Source: a virus
Strand: one strand, 5' to 3'
IMG/VR virus record: IMGVR_UViG_3300045988_000143
Location: 1-5,876 of that record
Length of the DNA: 5,876 nucleotides
Position numbers and translations under genes: made by a program. The first letter of the stretch is position 1, and each line of letters starts with the position of its first letter. Shown here one piece after another: positions 2,897 through 5,144 of this stretch. The notes under the pieces are model-generated. The model had not been told where the DNA came from and did not search any database. It saw nothing but the letters and a program-made list of their open reading frames with translations.

Positions 2897-2907
2897 AGGT
2901 GTCACCT

Positions 2908-2943
2908 AGCCAAGTACCTATCAAGTAAGGTACTTGGCTTTTG
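2908..2943 (+). terminator. Rho-independent terminator after VP4
   Basis: Perfect 12-bp stem AGCCAAGTACCT (2908-2919) / AGGTACTTGGCT (2928-2939) with an 8-nt loop ATCAAGTA. It runs into TTTT (2939-2942), 12 nt after the VP4 stop. Confidence 0.7.
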
Positions 2944-2980
2944 TCGTCTAAAGACTCCATGTATCAGACTATTCAGTCTA

Positions 2981-2998
2981 TCAAATAATCAAATAATC
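2981..2998. repeat. Tandem 8-mer TCAAATAA x2 (plus partial TC)
   Basis: TCAAATAA at 2981-2988 and 2989-2996, read directly from the sequence. Confidence 0.8.
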
Positions 2999-3003
2999 TA
3001 ATT

Positions 3004-3050
3004 CGCACGTGCGCACACGCGCGATAGCGCGCACGCGCGCACGCGCGATA
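3004..3050. repeat. Two 20-nt perfectly alternating pyrimidine-purine GC-rich blocks, each ending CACGCGCGATA (imperfect 24-nt tandem repeat)
   Basis: 3004-3023 CGCACGTGCGCACACGCGCG and 3028-3047 CGCGCACGCGCGCACGCGCG alternate Y-R without interruption. They are separated by ATAG and followed by ATATAATATTAAC. The two 23-nt units match at 19/23 positions. CACGCGCGATA is exact at 3016-3026 and 3040-3050. Confidence 0.9.
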
Positions 3051-3094
3051 TAATATTAACTTGTTGTAGGAGTAGTAGTAGAGGTAGTGGAAAA

Positions 3095-3261
3095 GTTGAA
3101 AAGTACTAAAATTTAACGCTAAAGCGTAAATAAAAAGAAAAAAACACTGTTGAAAGTTTTGTTGAAAACTTGTTGAATTGTTGAAAGTTCGTCAAAATGA
3201 CTAAAATCGTTGTGCAACATTTTGTGGAAAACCTGTTGAAAGTGTTGAAAGTGTTGAAAAC
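3095..3261 (+). repeat. Iteron-like array: 8 exact same-orientation GTTGAA(A) copies plus degenerate copies
   Basis: GTTGAA starts at 3095, 3149, 3161, 3172, 3180, 3235, 3244 and 3253. Positions 3234-3260 form three head-to-tail 9-mers TGTTGAAA(G/A). Degenerate copies are GTCAAAA at 3191 and GTGGAAAAC at 3224. Confidence 0.85.
3117..3126. repeat. CGCTAAAGCG mini-palindrome, copy 1 (upstream flank of the main iteron clusters)
   Basis: The exact 10-mer is repeated at 3322-3331. ACGCT/AGCGT are self-complementary arms. Confidence 0.7.
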
Positions 3262-3321
3262 GCGCACAGCGCTAACAATGAAAGAATTAGCCGAGCTCCG
3301 CGTGCGCTCCGCACGGCAGAG

Positions 3322-3331
3322 CGCTAAAGCG
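3322..3331. repeat. CGCTAAAGCG mini-palindrome, copy 2 (downstream flank of the iteron array)
   Basis: Embedded in AGCGCTAAAGCGCT (3320-3333). It is identical to the 10-mer at 3117-3126. Confidence 0.7.
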
Positions 3332-3357
3332 CTTTCAAAACAAAGGAGCAAAACCAG

Positions 3358-3388
3358 GTTACAAGAGAAAGTTACAAATATATTACAA
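3358..3388 (+). promoter_or_regulatory. Three direct (G/A)TTACAA repeats upstream of the promoter (possible operator or UP-like element)
   Basis: GTTACAA at 3358-3364, GTTACAA at 3371-3377 and ATTACAA at 3382-3388, with 13- and 11-nt spacing. They end 14 nt upstream of the -35 hexamer. Confidence 0.4.
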
Positions 3389-3401
3389 AACAGCAAAATC
3401 A

Positions 3402-3430
3402 TTGAAATCCCTATTGACATATGATATAAT
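3402..3430 (+). promoter_or_regulatory. Near-consensus sigma70-type promoter with extended -10
   Basis: TTGAAA (3402-3407), a 17-nt spacer, then TGaTATAAT (TG at 3422-3423, TATAAT at 3425-3430). It lies about 29 nt upstream of ATG 3459, at the 3' end of the long non-coding region. Confidence 0.75.
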
Positions 3431-3458
3431 GAAATCAGAAAAAAAGGGGGCAATTAAA

Positions 3459-3650
3459 ATGAAACACAACTACGAACTTAGAGAATTAAACAGCGATGCA
3501 ACCACAACAATCGTGCTAAGAATGACAGAAGAGCCAAGGGACGCGAAAAAGCGTGCAAAGGCATATGCAAAAGAAAACCCGGGATTGTATTCACTAAAAA
3601 GAATCGAAACGGTTGAGGTATACTTCACGGAGGTTGACGAAAATGCTTAA
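3459..3650 (+). CDS. Hypothetical protein, 63 aa (first gene after the promoter)
   Basis: ATG 3459 is preceded by AAGGGGG (3444-3450, 8-nt spacing). The track ORF 3402..3650 starts at a TTG that is actually the -35 hexamer. I recognise no family for MKHNYELRELNSDATTTIVLRMTEEPRDAKKRAKAYAKENPGLYSLKRIETVEVYFTEVDENA. Confidence 0.6.
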   Translation: MKHNYELRELNSDATTTIVLRMTEEPRDAKKRAKAYAKENPGLYSLKRIETVEVYFTEVDENA

Positions 3651-4035
3651 AAGCTATATACTGAACACAGATGGAAATGTACAACTTGCAAGACACTTCA
3701 AAGTAAAAGAATTTGCTTGCAAAGACGGCAGTCCGGTAGTATTCATAGACGACTACTTATACACCGTTCTAGACATCCTCCGACATAAACTAGGAAAGCC
3801 GGTGATCATCACCAGCGGATACAGAACACCAGAGTGGAACAAAAAATGCAACGGAGCAAAATACAGCTACCACATGCGCGGTATGGCAGCAGATATCCGA
3901 GTCGATGGCATGAGTGCAAAAGAAGTTGCCAACAAACTAAATGAAATCATACCGGATGAATGCGGCATTATCGTATATAACAGTTGGGTGCATTTTGATG
4001 TGCGAACCGGGAAAAAATACAGAAAGGGGGTATAA
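3643..4035 (+). CDS. Zinc D-Ala-D-Ala-carboxypeptidase-like peptidase, M15 family (candidate endolysin), 130 aa
   Basis: ATG 3643 has GGAGG at 3629-3633 (9-nt spacing). Family hallmarks are FKVKEFACKDG, ITSGYRTPEWN and SYHMRGMAADI (an H-x6-D zinc ligand pair, H77/D84), with the third ligand in WVHFDV (H117). I see no signal peptide or TM segment. Confidence 0.8.
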   Translation: MLKSYILNTDGNVQLARHFKVKEFACKDGSPVVFIDDYLYTVLDILRHKLGKPVIITSGYRTPEWNKKCNGAKYSYHMRGMAADIRVDGMSAKEVANKLNEIIPDECGIIVYNSWVHFDVRTGKKYRKGV

Positions 4036-4163: not shown

Positions 4164-4391
4164 ATGACAAGAACAACATGGAATGCAAGAGACACCCCCA
4201 CAGACGCACTAGAAGAACTGCTCGCACGAAAATACAAAGAAATTGAAGGCAATTACAAAATGCTACGCAAAGTCGGAAAAAAAGAAGACGCAATAAAGTT
4301 AATTGAAGAAATTTGGCAAATAAAAAGCTTTGCAAACAGCATTGAAGTAGAGCTGATGAGAAGGGAGTACAACAATGGCACGACATCGTAA
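4164..4391 (+). CDS. Hypothetical protein, 75 aa
   Basis: ATG 4164 has AAGGAG at 4151-4156 (7-nt spacing). Sequence: MTRTTWNARDTPTDALEELLARKYKEIEGNYKMLRKVGKKEDAIKLIEEIWQIKSFANSIEVELMRREYNNGTTS. I recognise no family. Confidence 0.6.
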   Translation: MTRTTWNARDTPTDALEELLARKYKEIEGNYKMLRKVGKKEDAIKLIEEIWQIKSFANSIEVELMRREYNNGTTS

Positions 4392-4497
4392 ACTCATGAG
4401 CGGCGCAAAAGACCGCCGTATGTTTAACGTAACAGCAAGAAAAACGAAAAGCATTAACCTTAGCCAGAAGCCCATGCGCGGCGGCATCCGGCTGTAA
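4375..4497 (+). CDS. Small arginine/lysine-rich DNA-binding (packaging) protein, phiX174 J / gokushovirus ORF8-like, 40 aa
   Basis: Not in the supplied ORF track; found by reading. ATG 4375 has AAGGGAG at 4361-4367 (7-nt spacing). Translation: MARHRKLMSGAKDRRMFNVTARKTKSINLSQKPMRGGIRL. The basic N-terminus, the R-x-F-x-x-TA core and the C-terminal MRGGIRL match my recollection of the small basic proteins of gokushovirus-like genomes. Confidence 0.7.
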   Translation: MARHRKLMSGAKDRRMFNVTARKTKSINLSQKPMRGGIRL

Positions 4498-4513: not shown

Positions 4514-4753
4514 ATGGAACATCTGTATTATGGCCTGTGGGATAGCGTGGCAAAGTGCTACGCATGGGTAGGCGAGAGCAAGAACAATGCAACCTTCGCA
4601 CGTATGTGCAACGTAATGGCAAAGGATGAAAAAACCTTTGTAGGACAGGCGCCGGAAGATTATACCGGCTATAAGTTAGCAAAATTCAACGATGAAAGCG
4701 GCGAATTTGTCAACGACAAGGAGAAAGTTTGGGAGGGCAAGCCGCATGAATAA
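4514..4753 (+). CDS. VP5: VP5-like non-structural protein (ORF5 family), 79 aa
   Basis: ATG 4514 has AAGGA at 4502-4506. YYGLWDSVAKCYAWVGESKNNATFARMCNVM...APEDYTGYKLAKFNDESGEF follows the pattern of gokushovirus VP5 (aromatic-D-x-K-A...A-x-R-x-F...PEDY/F...G-x-F-D-D-x-x-G). It sits directly upstream of VP3. Confidence 0.6.
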   Translation: MEHLYYGLWDSVAKCYAWVGESKNNATFARMCNVMAKDEKTFVGQAPEDYTGYKLAKFNDESGEFVNDKEKVWEGKPHE

Positions 4754-5144
4754 ACGATACGAAGAAGGGCGAAAGCCCTTCTTTTCCAAATCAGGCGAAA
4801 AATTCCAAAAACAATACGTCTGGACAAAGGACGAAAAAGGGCAAGAAGTACTGAAAGAAACTGCGCCAATCGACATCCAACAGGAAATTGAAAGCTATTC
4901 GGACGAATGTGATATCAAAAACATCGTCCGAAAAGCAAGTTTTGACCCGCAGTTTCTGAAAAGCCTGTCAGAAGGAGCATTAAACGATACGTACACAGAT
5001 ATTACGGAATTCCCGCAAAACATCCATGAGTATCACCGCATGGTGGCGACCGCGCAAGCAAACGTCATGAAGCTTGAAGAACTGCAAAAAAAGGCGGCAG
5101 AAGAGCCTAAAGAAGAATCTAAAGCAAAGGATGGCGAAGAATGA
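4746..5144 (+). CDS. VP3: Internal scaffolding protein VP3, 132 aa
   Basis: ATG 4746 has GGGAGGG at 4731-4737 (8-nt spacing) and overlaps the VP5 stop (ATGAATAA). SYSDECDIKNIVRKASFDP...YTDITEFPQNIHEYHRMVATAQANVMKLEE resembles VP3 of Chlamydia-type microviruses, and the tail is acidic. The stop overlaps the VP1 ATG. The upstream ATG 4692 has no SD. Confidence 0.7.
   Translation: MNKRYEEGRKPFFSKSGEKFQKQYVWTKDEKGQEVLKETAPIDIQQEIESYSDECDIKNIVRKASFDPQFLKSLSEGALNDTYTDITEFPQNIHEYHRMVATAQANVMKLEELQKKAAEEPKEESKAKDGEE

Follow-up and report, generated by a model that had tools for sequence, protein, structure and literature searches.

Gokushovirinae are among the commonest phages of gut viromes, yet we know of no experimentally mapped replication origin for either of their strands. 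The lambda origin combines iterons, an AT-rich region and a 28-bp palindrome, and pC194-type plasmids are nicked at the core CTTG^ATA. Hairpins serve as complementary-strand origins in G4 and phiX174 and as single-strand origins in rolling-circle plasmids, where they are modular, and AT-rich flanks are known to ease cruciform extrusion. In bacterial chromosomes, the basal unwinding system (BUS) of oriC follows a sequence rule, by which a DnaA box with no more than two mismatches has, within 16 bp and on the correct strand, three or more NAN trios (consensus 3'-GAT-5'), past which lies an AT-rich element (PMC8287927); the trio sequence of C. difficile was taken from PMC8287927 and PMC7561715. 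Conserved hairpins of other microviruses have been tentatively considered for a complementary-strand origin role, which could not be certified (PMC9865509). In the literature we searched, neither DnaA boxes nor DnaA-trios nor Z-DNA were described for microvirus origins.

The window analysed here is the whole 5,876-nt stretch of the IMG/VR record IMGVR_UViG_3300045988_000143. A reading made from its letters alone, hereafter the sequence-only reading, had pointed to twin GC-rich alternating blocks beside an AT-rich palindrome as a candidate plus-strand origin or Z-DNA element. The non-coding region that holds them is made up of the following parts:

2908–2939, plus strand: hairpin at the end of the VP4 (Rep) gene, with a perfect 12-bp stem, the loop ATCAAGTA and then TTTTGT (-12.3 kcal/mol, z = -6.9).
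2961–3003, plus strand: AT-rich spacer with the repeats TATCAG, TATTCAG and CTATCAAATAA (direct repeat; duplex stability low at 2983).
3004–3023, no strand assigned: arm 1 of a GC-rich alternating inverted repeat, equal to block 1 (sequence, inverted-repeat search, folds and alignment).
3024–3027, no strand assigned: centre or loop ATAG, where the phase of alternation is broken (in relatives GAA, GAAA, GTA, AAA, TAA and others).
3028–3047, no strand assigned: arm 2, equal to block 2, holding the most stable 15-mer duplex of the genome, 3027–3041 (alignment, duplex stability).
3048–3060, no strand assigned: AT-rich stretch ATATAATATTAAC with the palindrome TAATATTA, a candidate DNA unwinding element (duplex stability).
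3061–3081, plus strand: trinucleotide repeats TTG TTG TAG GAG TAG TAG TAG (trio consensus from PMC8287927 and PMC7561715).
3082–3103, plus strand: 4-nt spacer AGGT, then the tandem DnaA-box-like 9-mers AGTGGAAAA and GTTGAAAAG (in most relatives TGTGGAAAAGTTGAAAA).
3148–3260, plus strand: same-orientation iterons TGT(T/G)GAA(A/T)(A/G), the right part of a cassette spanning 3048–3260 (direct repeats).
3261–3272, no strand assigned: CGCGCACAGCGC, a short GC tract that resembles the blocks and bounds the cassette on its right (direct repeat).
3402–3430, plus strand: strong sigma-70-type promoter TTGAAA-17-TGaTATAAT for the downstream genes, at the end of the non-coding region (11 of 12 matches, TG extension).

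The hairpin at 2908–2939 looks like an intrinsic terminator, since its 12-bp stem is followed by TTTTGT. Its loop motif (C)TATCAAG(T/A)A, the reverse complement of which is CTTGATA, is conserved, TATCAAG lying inside the VP4-terminal hairpin in 117 of 129 distinct VP4 3' flanks despite differing stems, and CTATCAAATAA at 2978–2988 is a second copy of this motif. The iterons start at 3148, 3160, 3171, 3179, 3223, 3234, 3243 and 3252, and GTTGAAA occurs seven times in this array and nowhere else in the genome. The tract CGCGCACAGCGC repeats the GA(A/T)A(A/G)CGCGCAC of the loop/arm-2 junction. The 75-residue ORF at 3197–3424 was discarded as a gene: it belongs to no Pfam or PHROG family, overlaps the iterons and would be broken in genomes with an inverted cassette.

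The two blocks are the arms of a single imperfect GC-rich inverted repeat of about 44 nt. Arm 1 (CGCACGTGCGCACACGCGCG) alternates perfectly between pyrimidine and purine over 20 nt and opens with the perfect palindrome CGCACGTGCG (3004–3013), as the sequence-only reading had it; so does arm 2 (CGCGCACGCGCGCACGCGCG) alternate, except that its run is really 21 nt long (3027–3047). Both blocks end in CACGCGCG followed by ATA, with ACGCGCGATA at 3017 and 3041, which is true of the window as had been claimed, while neither the shared 'GATA' ending nor the exact 20-nt length is general among relatives. The palindrome TAATATTA was likewise correctly placed at 3051–3058. Pairing of GCGCG with CGCGC round an ATAG loop does appear in the predicted fold, but this small stem is not supported as the relevant hairpin, the whole 20+20-nt element folding instead. 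In first-order Markov simulations of the genome, a single alternating run of at least 20 nt arose in 30 of 5000 replicates, and two such runs within 10 nt in none of 5000. The suspected location in an origin region gained from the duplex stabilities, the least stable 15-mer of the genome (3048–3062, with the AT-rich palindrome) directly abutting the most stable one.

An assembly or amplification artefact, a worry raised at the outset, has next to no probability left. GC-rich palindromes are prone to chimeric assembly, and one contig (L024) has an odd CCCCC in arm 2; yet the same element, varying in an orderly way, recurs in GenBank and IMG/VR assemblies made independently for many studies and datasets, so that the tract is real. 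It is present in KT264791, a GenBank entry from another study (98.9% identity over 88 nt), in gokushoviruses from pig, monkey and human in GenBank, in most IMG/VR relatives (at least 15 metagenome datasets) and in the contig L200, whose Rep is only 50% identical. GC-rich alternating runs of 16 nt or more number 161 in 625 kb of related contigs; every one is found no further than 450 nt from one and the same conserved box, with none away from it. The classical gokushoviruses Chp2, phiMH2K and SpV4 have no blocks, trios or iterons. As judged from these alignments, what a clade of gut gokushoviruses conserves is the pattern of the element and not its sequence, and the comparison with relatives that had been called for has thus turned up a genuine conserved non-coding element able to form a hairpin.

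Within this pattern, the arms measure 17–26 nt, contain repeat units of 4, 6 and 8 nt and enclose an A-rich centre of 0–6 nt (ATA and TAG also occur); the segment CGCGCAC(GC) directly past the loop is the best conserved part of arm 2. Over 74 distinct elements the dinucleotide steps are CG (970), CA (378), TG (95) and TA (89), and the two runs are always out of phase with each other. The orientation is fixed, all scored twin blocks being CA-rich on the coding strand and downstream of VP4. Among 116 distinct cassette-bearing relatives, a twin block lies upstream of a forward cassette in 93 and beside an inverted cassette in five more. About 15% of close relatives have no element, and others have it with one arm cut short or without a loop (L059, L110), which makes it dispensable or redundant. 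About 28% of relatives have an insert of about 38 nt between block 2 and the AT-rich element; this insert and the inverted cassettes indicate that a fixed geometry with the unwinding element is not needed.

The arms have evolved together, and have done so on one strand in particular. When 19 lineages were aligned as the strand complementary to the genes, the consensus was a helix of 20 bp (-40.0 kcal/mol) in which standard pairs filled 98.1% of 370 cells, against 93.6 ± 0.6 after shuffling, and compensatory double changes occurred at 13 of 20 pairs, against 5.9 ± 1.7; none of 500 shuffles reached either value. Registers shifted by ±2 were about 90% paired, with just three to six pairs showing compensatory double changes, and a separate within-arm permutation gave 277 observed Watson-Crick pairs against 245 ± 4.6. 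Complementarity between the arms thus exceeds what composition and alternation provide, as is expected of a hairpin or cruciform. The coding-strand alignment, on the other hand, has a consensus fold of just -2.9 kcal/mol with nine pairs: about 22% of its pairs are A.C mismatches where the complementary strand has G.T wobbles, and the helix is uninterrupted only on the latter. Similarly, DNA folding favoured the complementary strand in all 18 lineage representatives (mean -22.5 versus -16.6 kcal/mol), and the coding strand of some lineages reached no better than about -8 kcal/mol, in shapes that disagreed. In the window itself the coding strand folds at -20.2 kcal/mol (z = -1.5) and the complementary strand at -26.2 kcal/mol (z = -4.0), which none of 200 shuffles equalled.

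Rare variants within the blocks are skewed to G>A (13, versus six C>T), the reverse of synonymous VP4 sites (two G>A versus 14 C>T; Fisher P = 0.0016), and this reversal indicates that changes giving A.C on the complementary strand are purged. Transitions outnumber transversions 25:2 in the blocks, compared with 184:180 in the flanks (P = 1e-5). Taken together, the compensatory changes, the exclusion of transversions and the asymmetric purging show purifying selection on structure, and arm-to-arm complementarity is, on this comparative evidence, maintained by selection. The strand asymmetry could be partly compositional, as CA:TG in the blocks (4.0:1) equals the A-over-T bias at four-fold sites and the depletions of the two mismatch classes are arithmetically linked. 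Composition as the sole cause was rejected: it covers the 4:1 CA:TG ratio, not the reversed rare-variant spectrum in the blocks. The A-richness of the coding strand itself looks selective.

To the right of the blocks lies a cassette of about 210 nt whose sequence has the layout of the unwinding module of bacterial oriC (BUS), with an AT-rich element followed by TAG trios, a 4-nt spacer, tandem DnaA-box-like 9-mers and box-like iterons. In all, 148 distinct cassettes were collected, of which 132 could be parsed; the proximal box reads TGTGGAAAA in 53 of these and AGTGGAAAA in 26, and the spacer is mostly 4 nt. The window itself has (TAG)3, the 4-nt spacer and AGTGGAAAA, as the BUS sequence rule demands. 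DnaA-box-like sites number five in 226 nt of the window, against a mean of 2.9 and a maximum of six in shuffles, which is a modest enrichment, and at one position where the relaxed consensus TTWTNCACA is fixed, the common iteron TGTTGAAA does not follow the DnaA box. At least 120 metagenomic loci match TAGTAGTAG-N4-TGTGGATAA and have AT-rich 5' flanks and tandem second boxes, and in 26 of them a DnaA signature lies 220–450 nt past the boxes on the opposite strand. The bacterial counterparts of the tandem boxes read TGTGGATAAGTTGATAA, and the 5' flanks of genuine oriC trios are AT-rich (76% on average). An E. coli string with the same order of motifs, taken here to be the DUE-R1 junction of oriC, occurred in 5421 of 5426 genomes. 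It is the cassette, not the blocks, that resembles the oriC BUS of B. subtilis and C. difficile (PMC6669920, PMC8287927, PMC7561715). The two have in common the order and strand of the parts, the 4-nt spacer, three TAG trios, tandem boxes in an 8–9-nt register and the AT-rich outer flank. They differ in that the cassette boxes read TGTGGAAAA or TGTTGAAAA where oriC has TGTGGATAA, and in that the cassette resides in a rolling-circle phage, occurs in both orientations and has a GC hairpin at its border.

A GC-rich stem of at least 6 bp within 150 nt beyond the trios was found in none of 73 oriC-like metagenomic loci. The idea that a GC hairpin is a normal flank of bacterial unwinding elements was accordingly dropped, and any role of the hairpin would be without cellular precedent. 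The cassette is inverted in six of 116 relatives, where its AT-rich element faces away from the blocks and the whole sits exactly between the twin blocks and the block-like CGCGCACAGCGC. A BLAST search of the cassette against 72,556 plasmids gave short chance matches only, so no plasmid origin of this kind was recognised. A search for VP4 in 185,579 species genomes gave one match, a free contig of 5.8 kb in the bin of a Prevotella MAG, and no integrated copy, from which neither an attachment site nor a host can be inferred.

Our best explanation, offered tentatively, is that the element is a structural accessory at the border of the origin that acts on the complementary strand. It occupies non-coding DNA, flanked on one side by the VP4 terminator hairpin and on the other by the cassette, and there the most stable duplex of the genome abuts the least stable. 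Its role would be that of a DNA structure serving the replication origin, rather than of a site recognised by its sequence. On the double-stranded replicative form, it would set the left edge of origin melting; once the AT-rich element had opened, the complementary strand could snap into a hairpin of 20–21 bp. In the usual orientation this strand is the one without trios and would serve a leftward fork as its lagging-strand template; the folded hairpin might keep the origin open or act as a landmark for the host machinery of priming or helicase loading. The element would be an accessory rather than essential, and would not be the Rep nick site. A bolder version, which we consider unlikely, proposes a hybrid origin in which a rolling-circle single-stranded-DNA phage combines the unwinding layout of host chromosomes with a strand-asymmetric GC hairpin of its own: host DnaA would open the replicative form at 3048–3081, after which the complementary strand of the blocks would fold so as to hold the origin open or steer the loading of helicase and primase. 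Were it true, Gokushovirinae would have their first defined origin, and a DnaA-trio origin would have been described outside a chromosome for the first time; action of the cassette on duplex DNA would follow from its being found in either orientation. Involvement of host DnaA would also tie phage replication to the host initiation machinery, and the dialect of DnaA boxes might then help to predict hosts. What began as an odd GC tract has become a concrete map, with a co-varying complementary-strand hairpin, an adjacent melting minimum, an oriC-like cassette and a second hairpin with a conserved loop that, in its complement, spells the classical nick core CTTGATA, and the region is a first testable candidate origin for these gut single-stranded-DNA phages. 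Should the hairpin prove dispensable, it would still be a clean natural example of a DNA helix that evolves via wobble intermediates only.

Other explanations fit parts of this evidence. The element may instead be a complementary-strand origin, that is, a hairpin of the encapsidated strand, free of SSB, which primase, RNA polymerase or a PriA-type primosome recognises for conversion to double-stranded DNA; we regard this too as unlikely, although a conserved intergenic hairpin with compensatory changes, non-coding, near the Rep gene, fixed in orientation relative to the genes and modular in its presence among close relatives, is what one would look for in such a phage. The centres of type-B elements also read GCGAAGC, a hyperstable DNA mini-hairpin. 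However, the coding strand, which is held to be packaged in microviruses, is the one that folds poorly, and the loops have no conserved motif. The synonymous C>T excess (14 versus 2) fits this usual polarity, with the coding strand exposed as a single strand, which would leave the well-formed hairpin on the strand that is not packaged; moreover, a conserved loop and a perfect stem make the VP4-terminal hairpin a candidate of at least equal merit. That the blocks are Z-DNA switches, flipping to left-handed DNA in the supercoiled replicative form so as to absorb supercoils and tune origin melting or promoters, is doubtful. The sequence-only reading was right that they have the makings of Z-DNA: the uninterrupted runs are rich in CG and CA, alternation is perfect in all lineages with transversions excluded, and promoter-like -10 boxes and the strong promoter follow downstream of the element, a setting in which transcription would create negative supercoils. 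What selection is seen to maintain, however, is complementary arms of equal length split by a loop, none of which Z-DNA needs; the constant phase difference between the blocks would add junctions, and strand-specific purging of C>T cannot be explained by duplex Z-DNA. Furthermore, a helix that evolves only via wobbles keeps its alternation by descent, so separate selection on alternation is unneeded. A crude two-state model with assumed B-to-Z energy parameters made the flip favourable only from a superhelical density of about -0.045 to -0.05 or beyond, and disfavoured it at the effective in vivo density of about -0.03.

A recombination origin of the pattern, in which a (CG)n-type quasi-palindrome expands by slippage and serves as a breakpoint for exchange or inversion of non-coding modules while being functionless itself, seems to us similarly improbable. 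It would account for the units repeated in arms of varying length, for genomes with 91–96% identical VP4 that differ round the blocks (type A, B or C, blockless, or with an inverted cassette), and for the position of the cassette, in both orientations, exactly between the blocks and CGCGCACAGCGC. It does not account for the compensatory changes, the excluded transversions and the asymmetric purging, nor for the persistence of the element where Rep is only 50% identical; the inverted junctions, too, have extra, diverged bases and are thus not fresh flips. A function as RNA is slightly less probable still, whether the hairpin were to protect the origin from read-through as an insulator or reserve terminator, or to form the 5' end of an antisense transcript. 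The element does lie where one operon has ended and the next has yet to begin, wobbles are tolerated at about 22%, as in RNA helices, and an antisense role would fit a G.U-tolerant helix on the complementary strand, the antisense-sense RNA folds having a mean of -38 kcal/mol. Yet most types have no U-tract after the stem on either strand, a canonical terminator is already present upstream (2908–2939), a scan found no leftward promoter and none would be conserved in the inverted-cassette genomes, and Rfam covariance models run over the whole window gave no match at E-values up to 1. Very unlikely, finally, is the plus-strand origin first suggested for the blocks, in which VP4 would cut at ACGCGCG/ATA or in the loop, in the manner of HUH endonucleases at hairpins with GC stems. 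It drew on the nearby Rep gene, an easily melted AT-rich stretch and a G/ATAT...TAA context that recalls phiX174. Closely related Reps, however, do not share a conserved sequence here: genomes with 90–96% identical VP4 vary freely in the loop and post-block bases (ATAG, GAAG, GAAA, AAAC, AATA and so on), the roughly 38-nt insert intervenes in one large group, ACGCGCGATA is specific to the type of the window, and about 15% of relatives have no element at all. Better conserved candidates lie nearby, namely TAACTTG at 3057–3063 and, on the opposite strand, CTTGATA in the loop of the 2908–2939 hairpin.

The phiX174 origin had been given correctly as CAACTTG^ATATTAATAAC (rep_origin annotation at 4306), and a likeness does exist, in that an AT-rich stretch adjoins a (C/T)AACTTG heptamer at 3048–3063, to the right of the blocks. 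It is not the likeness that had been described: nothing inside 3004–3047 resembles CAACTTG^ATA, whereas TAACTTG, which matches at six of seven positions and overlaps the start of the trinucleotide repeats, lies to the right of the place first proposed and 3' of the AT-rich part, and reads TATTTG in L200. The order is thus reversed relative to phiX174, with the AT-rich part 5' of AACTTG, and the site is non-coding instead of inside the Rep gene. The blocks have no phiX174 counterpart except a small CCCCGAAGGGG hairpin 3' of its origin. The SpV4 coding strand carries AACTTGATA.

The other known systems each share some features with the element. Like the lambda origin, the region has the same order of parts and a palindrome of unclear role at the far border; lambda differs in using the O protein as initiator, and its palindrome is not an alternating CG tract. 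Cloned d(CG)n/d(CA)n Z-tracts and cruciform-forming repeats in supercoiled plasmids are likewise alternating, GC-rich, borne on a small supercoiled circle and flanked by AT-rich DNA, whereas the element is natural and conserved, with co-varying arms in two out-of-phase 20-nt blocks. With the complementary-strand origins (the phiX174 primosome assembly site, G4 oric, plasmid sso and the hairpins of reekeekee- and roodoodoo-microviruses; PMC9865509) it shares an intergenic hairpin that is conserved, modular, near Rep and marked by compensatory substitutions, but its good helix is on the strand not expected to be packaged, its stem is purely alternating CG/CA and its loop has no conserved motif.

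Several further assignments were tried and set aside. A packaged strand complementary to the genes, which would turn the blocks into an ordinary single-strand origin, was rejected, since the synonymous changes (C>T 14 versus G>A 2) mark the usual polarity, and is kept as a minor variant of the complementary-strand origin. Blocks as a promoter -35 box or spacer were dismissed because their distance to the TATAAT-like box ranges from about 1 to about 60 nt, and blocks as an intrinsic terminator because they have no U-tract and the terminator scan does not report the element. Long-range pairing of arm 2 with CGCGTGCGC at 3299–3307 is not kept in relatives, and a dif/Xer-site reading was dropped after comparison by eye only. 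Hints toward a packaged complement were also noted, namely the complementary-strand helix, CTTGATA in the hairpin loop of that strand and its T-richness. Past the element, the coding strand continues with ATATAAT, GCTCTTC or TATATT and its complement with AATTAG or ATAAAG, and the AT-rich stretch at 3048–3060 can be read as a TATAAT -10 box as well.

The window, 5876 bases long, represents a gokushovirus genome that is circular and 5821 nt in size, its ends overlapping by 55 nt; the + (coding) strand carries every gene. The twin blocks, arm 1 (3004-3023) and arm 2 (3028-3047) around the centre ATAG, lie between VP4 and a small ORF:

5141 across the junction to 1005, + strand: VP1
1044-1880, + strand: VP2 pilot protein
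1877-2896, + strand: VP4 Rep
2897-3458: non-coding stretch holding the twin blocks and the cassette (3048-3260)
2908-2939: terminator-like hairpin at the start of the non-coding stretch
3402-3430: strong promoter, near-consensus sigma-70 with an extended -10 box, at the end of the non-coding stretch
3459-3650, + strand: small ORF
3643-4035, + strand: M15 peptidase/endolysin
4375-4497, + strand: basic 40-aa protein
4514-4753, + strand: VP5
4746-5144, + strand: VP3 scaffold

The perfect pyrimidine-purine alternation described in the sequence-only reading is borne out, with runs of 20 and 21 nt; both blocks finish in CACGCGCG followed by ATA, and the palindromes named there are present. Of 5000 simulated genomes, 30 contained one run of 20 nt or more, and none contained a pair of them within 10 nt of each other. 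The suggestion that the tract might be an assembly artefact has virtually nothing left to recommend it, since GenBank gokushoviruses sampled from humans, pigs and monkeys carry the tract too, as do most of some 180 IMG/VR relatives, drawn from at least 15 datasets, and a contig (L200) with a Rep of only 50% identity. Related contigs totalling 625 kb contain 161 such GC-rich alternating runs, all of them at the twin-block locus; Chp2, phiMH2K and SpV4, which are classical gokushoviruses, lack them. Aberrant elements occur in three related contigs (loop deleted to give a single alternating run of about 41 nt in L110, arm 1 shortened to CGCGCG in L059, CCCCC inside arm 2 in L024); these may be genuine, or may come from misassembly of a difficult palindrome.

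Among 74 distinct versions of the element, representing 18 lineages at least 8 edits apart, the sequence drifts and the design stays constant: two alternating arms of 17-26 nt, correlated in length (r = 0.57, mean difference 1.9 nt), flank a centre of 0-6 A-rich bases that breaks the alternation phase. The arms are more complementary than expected from alternation and composition, forming 277 Watson-Crick pairs where within-arm shuffles give 245 +/- 4.6. An alignment of the complementary strand from 19 lineages folds (RNAalifold) into a single 20-bp helix of -40.0 kcal/mol, with standard pairs in 98.1% of cells and compensatory double changes in 13 of 20 pairs, both values exceeding those of all 500 shuffles and of slid registers. 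Comparison of close relatives gives 25 transitions to 2 transversions within the blocks and 184 to 180 in the flanking sequence (P = 1e-5). A helix that evolves solely via wobble intermediates would retain strict alternation by descent, which therefore needs no separate explanation.

The pairing differs between the two strands. The coding-strand alignment of the same 19 lineages reaches only -2.9 kcal/mol and 9 pairs, as the positions outside Watson-Crick pairing are A.C mismatches on the coding strand and G.T wobbles on the complementary strand. In the window itself, the complementary strand folds into a helix of 21 bp without interruption (-26.2 kcal/mol, z = -4.0); the coding-strand fold (-20.2 kcal/mol) is no better than those of 13 of 200 shuffles. 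Composition could explain part of this asymmetry, the CA:TG ratio of 4.0:1 in the blocks being matched by a 4.2:1 bias at four-fold degenerate sites, and the depletions of the two mismatch classes are arithmetically coupled. Even so, rare-variant spectra argue for selection: C>T versus G>A variants number 14 to 2 at synonymous VP4 sites and 6 to 13 in the blocks (Fisher P = 0.0016), so that changes giving A.C on the complementary strand are purged and those giving G.T tolerated. A C>T excess is the usual mark of a strand that spends time single-stranded; the excess at synonymous sites is thus indirect evidence in keeping with packaging of the coding strand, as conventionally held.

Directly right of arm 2 lies the cassette, which is conserved better than the Rep protein and comprises, in order:

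AT-rich stretch
box TAACTTGTTGTAGnnGTAGTAGTAG, holding TTGTTGTAGnnGTAGTAGTAG trios
4-nt spacer
tandem DnaA-box-like 9-mers, TGTGGAAAA (AGTGGAAAA in the window) and then directly GTTGAAAAG
two small hairpins
at least 8 same-orientation iterons TGT(T/G)GAA(A/T)(A/G)

In bacterial oriCs the basal unwinding system is made up of DnaA boxes, a short spacer (about 4 bp on average), DnaA-trios of consensus 3'-GAT-5' (5'-TAG-3') and an AT-rich element (PMC8287927, PMC6669920, PMC7561715), the trio tract of C. difficile reading TAGTAGTAATAGTAGTAGGTG on the corresponding strand (PMC7561715). The cassette matches this system in order, strand and spacing. The motifs come in the same order in the E. coli string TTATTAG-13 nt-TGTGGATAA, found in 5421 of 5426 genomes and which we take to be the oriC DUE-R1 junction. 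When metagenomes were scanned for TAGTAGTAG-N4-TGTGGATAA, at least 120 loci matched; most sit on long bacterial contigs, and the loci have 5' flanks of 76% AT and GC-rich 4-nt spacers. Their second tandem boxes include TGTGGATAAGTTGATAA; the phage counterpart TGTGGAAAAGTTGAAAA departs from it in nothing but the A/T position of each box. On the opposite strand of 26 loci, 220-450 nt past the boxes, there is a DnaA protein signature, giving the arrangement dnaA-boxes-trios-unwinding element; oriCs beside dnaA thus have the geometry of the cassette, TGTGGATAAGTTGATAA included. The cassette, with its putative DnaA boxes, therefore resembles genuine oriC unwinding modules, box-like sites being only modestly enriched in the window alone and the common iteron failing to match the DnaA box at a position that is normally invariant. 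Some relatives (L084, L106, L116, L184) carry an inverted box TTTTCCACA beyond the last iteron, which could pair with TGTGGAAAA into a predicted hairpin with a DnaA box in its stem, an arrangement reminiscent of the 'ABC primosome' site of plasmid R6K, which depends on DnaA.

In 73 oriC-like loci, no GC hairpin was found on the far side of the unwinding element, and on this comparison the twin blocks are not part of the putative oriC-like module. Among 116 distinct cassette-bearing relatives, a forward cassette is preceded by the blocks in 93 and lacks them in 17, and the cassette is inverted in 6; in 5 of these 6 the blocks are present and keep their orientation. Inversion relative to the genes is seen in IMG/VR contigs L009, L021, L027, L033, L069 and L198 and in GenBank MG945447; the inverted span runs exactly from arm 2 to the block-like CGCGCACAGCGC (3261-3272), with a few extra, diverged bases at the junctions, and may result from active flipping or from old rearrangements. 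A cassette that works in either orientation would most simply act on duplex DNA; the blocks, unlike it, stay fixed relative to the genes. The right flank of the cassette (3261-3340) is likewise GC-rich and hairpin-prone, containing CGCGCACAGCGC, CGCGTGCGC (complementary to arm 2) and GCGCTAAAGCGC; CGCTAAAGCG occurs at 3117 and 3322, and the last iteron could pair with GCGCTTTCAAAAC at 3329-3341. About 32 distinct relatives of the L001 type have an insert of about 38 nt, GCTCTTCAGCGCTATTGTTCGCAAGCTCACAAGCGCTG, between arm 2 and the AT-rich element, with its own 7-bp stem and readable as a promoter, TTGTTC-18-TGTATAAT; in the L084-type group, which has no GC blocks, TTGACA precedes the AT-rich box by about 16 nt. 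In many relatives a putative rightward promoter may therefore fire into the conserved box.

That VP4 nicks at the blocks, as had been proposed, is very improbable and was rejected: genomes whose Rep is nearly identical differ in loops and block ends, and the element is absent from 15% of relatives. A possible Rep recognition site is the conserved loop motif (C)TATCAAG(T/A)A of the VP4-terminal hairpin (2908-2939). The motif occurs in 117 of 129 distinct flanks, although each lineage has its own stem sequence, with a second copy in the window, CTATCAAATAA, 60 nt downstream (2978-2988). Its reverse complement is the phiX174 nick core CTTGATA, presumably also that of pC194-type plasmids, but here antisense to the genes. 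The coding strand of SpV4 has AACTTGATA, identical to the phiX174 origin core, at position 1640, shortly before the capsid gene. Two copies of AACTTGTTG are present in the window's non-coding region (3057-3066, overlapping the conserved box, and 3167-3175).

We tentatively favour a structural role for the twin blocks at the origin border. The most stable 15-mer of the genome (3027-3041) lies inside arm 2 and the least stable (3048-3062) directly to its right; the element would be a duplex clamp adjoining the melting site and, once the origin opens, would fold on the complementary strand. This reading is preferred because the nick site fails, Z-DNA leaves features unexplained and a single-strand origin, the field's default reading of such hairpins, fits poorly, its helix being degraded on the strand expected to be packaged. 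We consider a single-strand origin unlikely on that account, yet it would become the best reading if the complementary strand proved to be the packaged one.

The earlier suggestion of a Z-DNA former is allowed on sequence grounds, but a Z-DNA switch leaves the co-variation, the phase break and the strand-specific purging unexplained and, by a rough energy estimate, demands high superhelical density; we give it only a slim chance. The same slim chance is given to a tract that is merely a functionless recombination junction, and a role at the RNA level is expected still less.

Conserved intergenic hairpins are already known in microviruses; what is new about this one is its composition, its strand asymmetry and its place beside an oriC-like cassette. 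Records containing the tract have nothing annotated there or only hypothetical proteins, and in the literature we found no description of it, nor of DnaA boxes or trios in Microviridae.

Most genes of the window are preceded by strong Shine-Dalgarno sequences, which with the predicted sigma-70 promoter (3402-3430) point to a Firmicutes-like host rather than Bacteroidota; in contrast, the sole match in a genome collection is a contig binned with Prevotella. The coding strand has a strong A-over-T bias in all genes (four-fold sites A 50%, T 12.5%), and rare-variant spectra, in which A>G variants are frequent yet unfixed, suggest that it is maintained by selection. C>A is far above G>T (28 versus 3), mainly at non-synonymous positions. 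The A-over-T skew is similar in phiMH2K and absent in Chp2 and SpV4.
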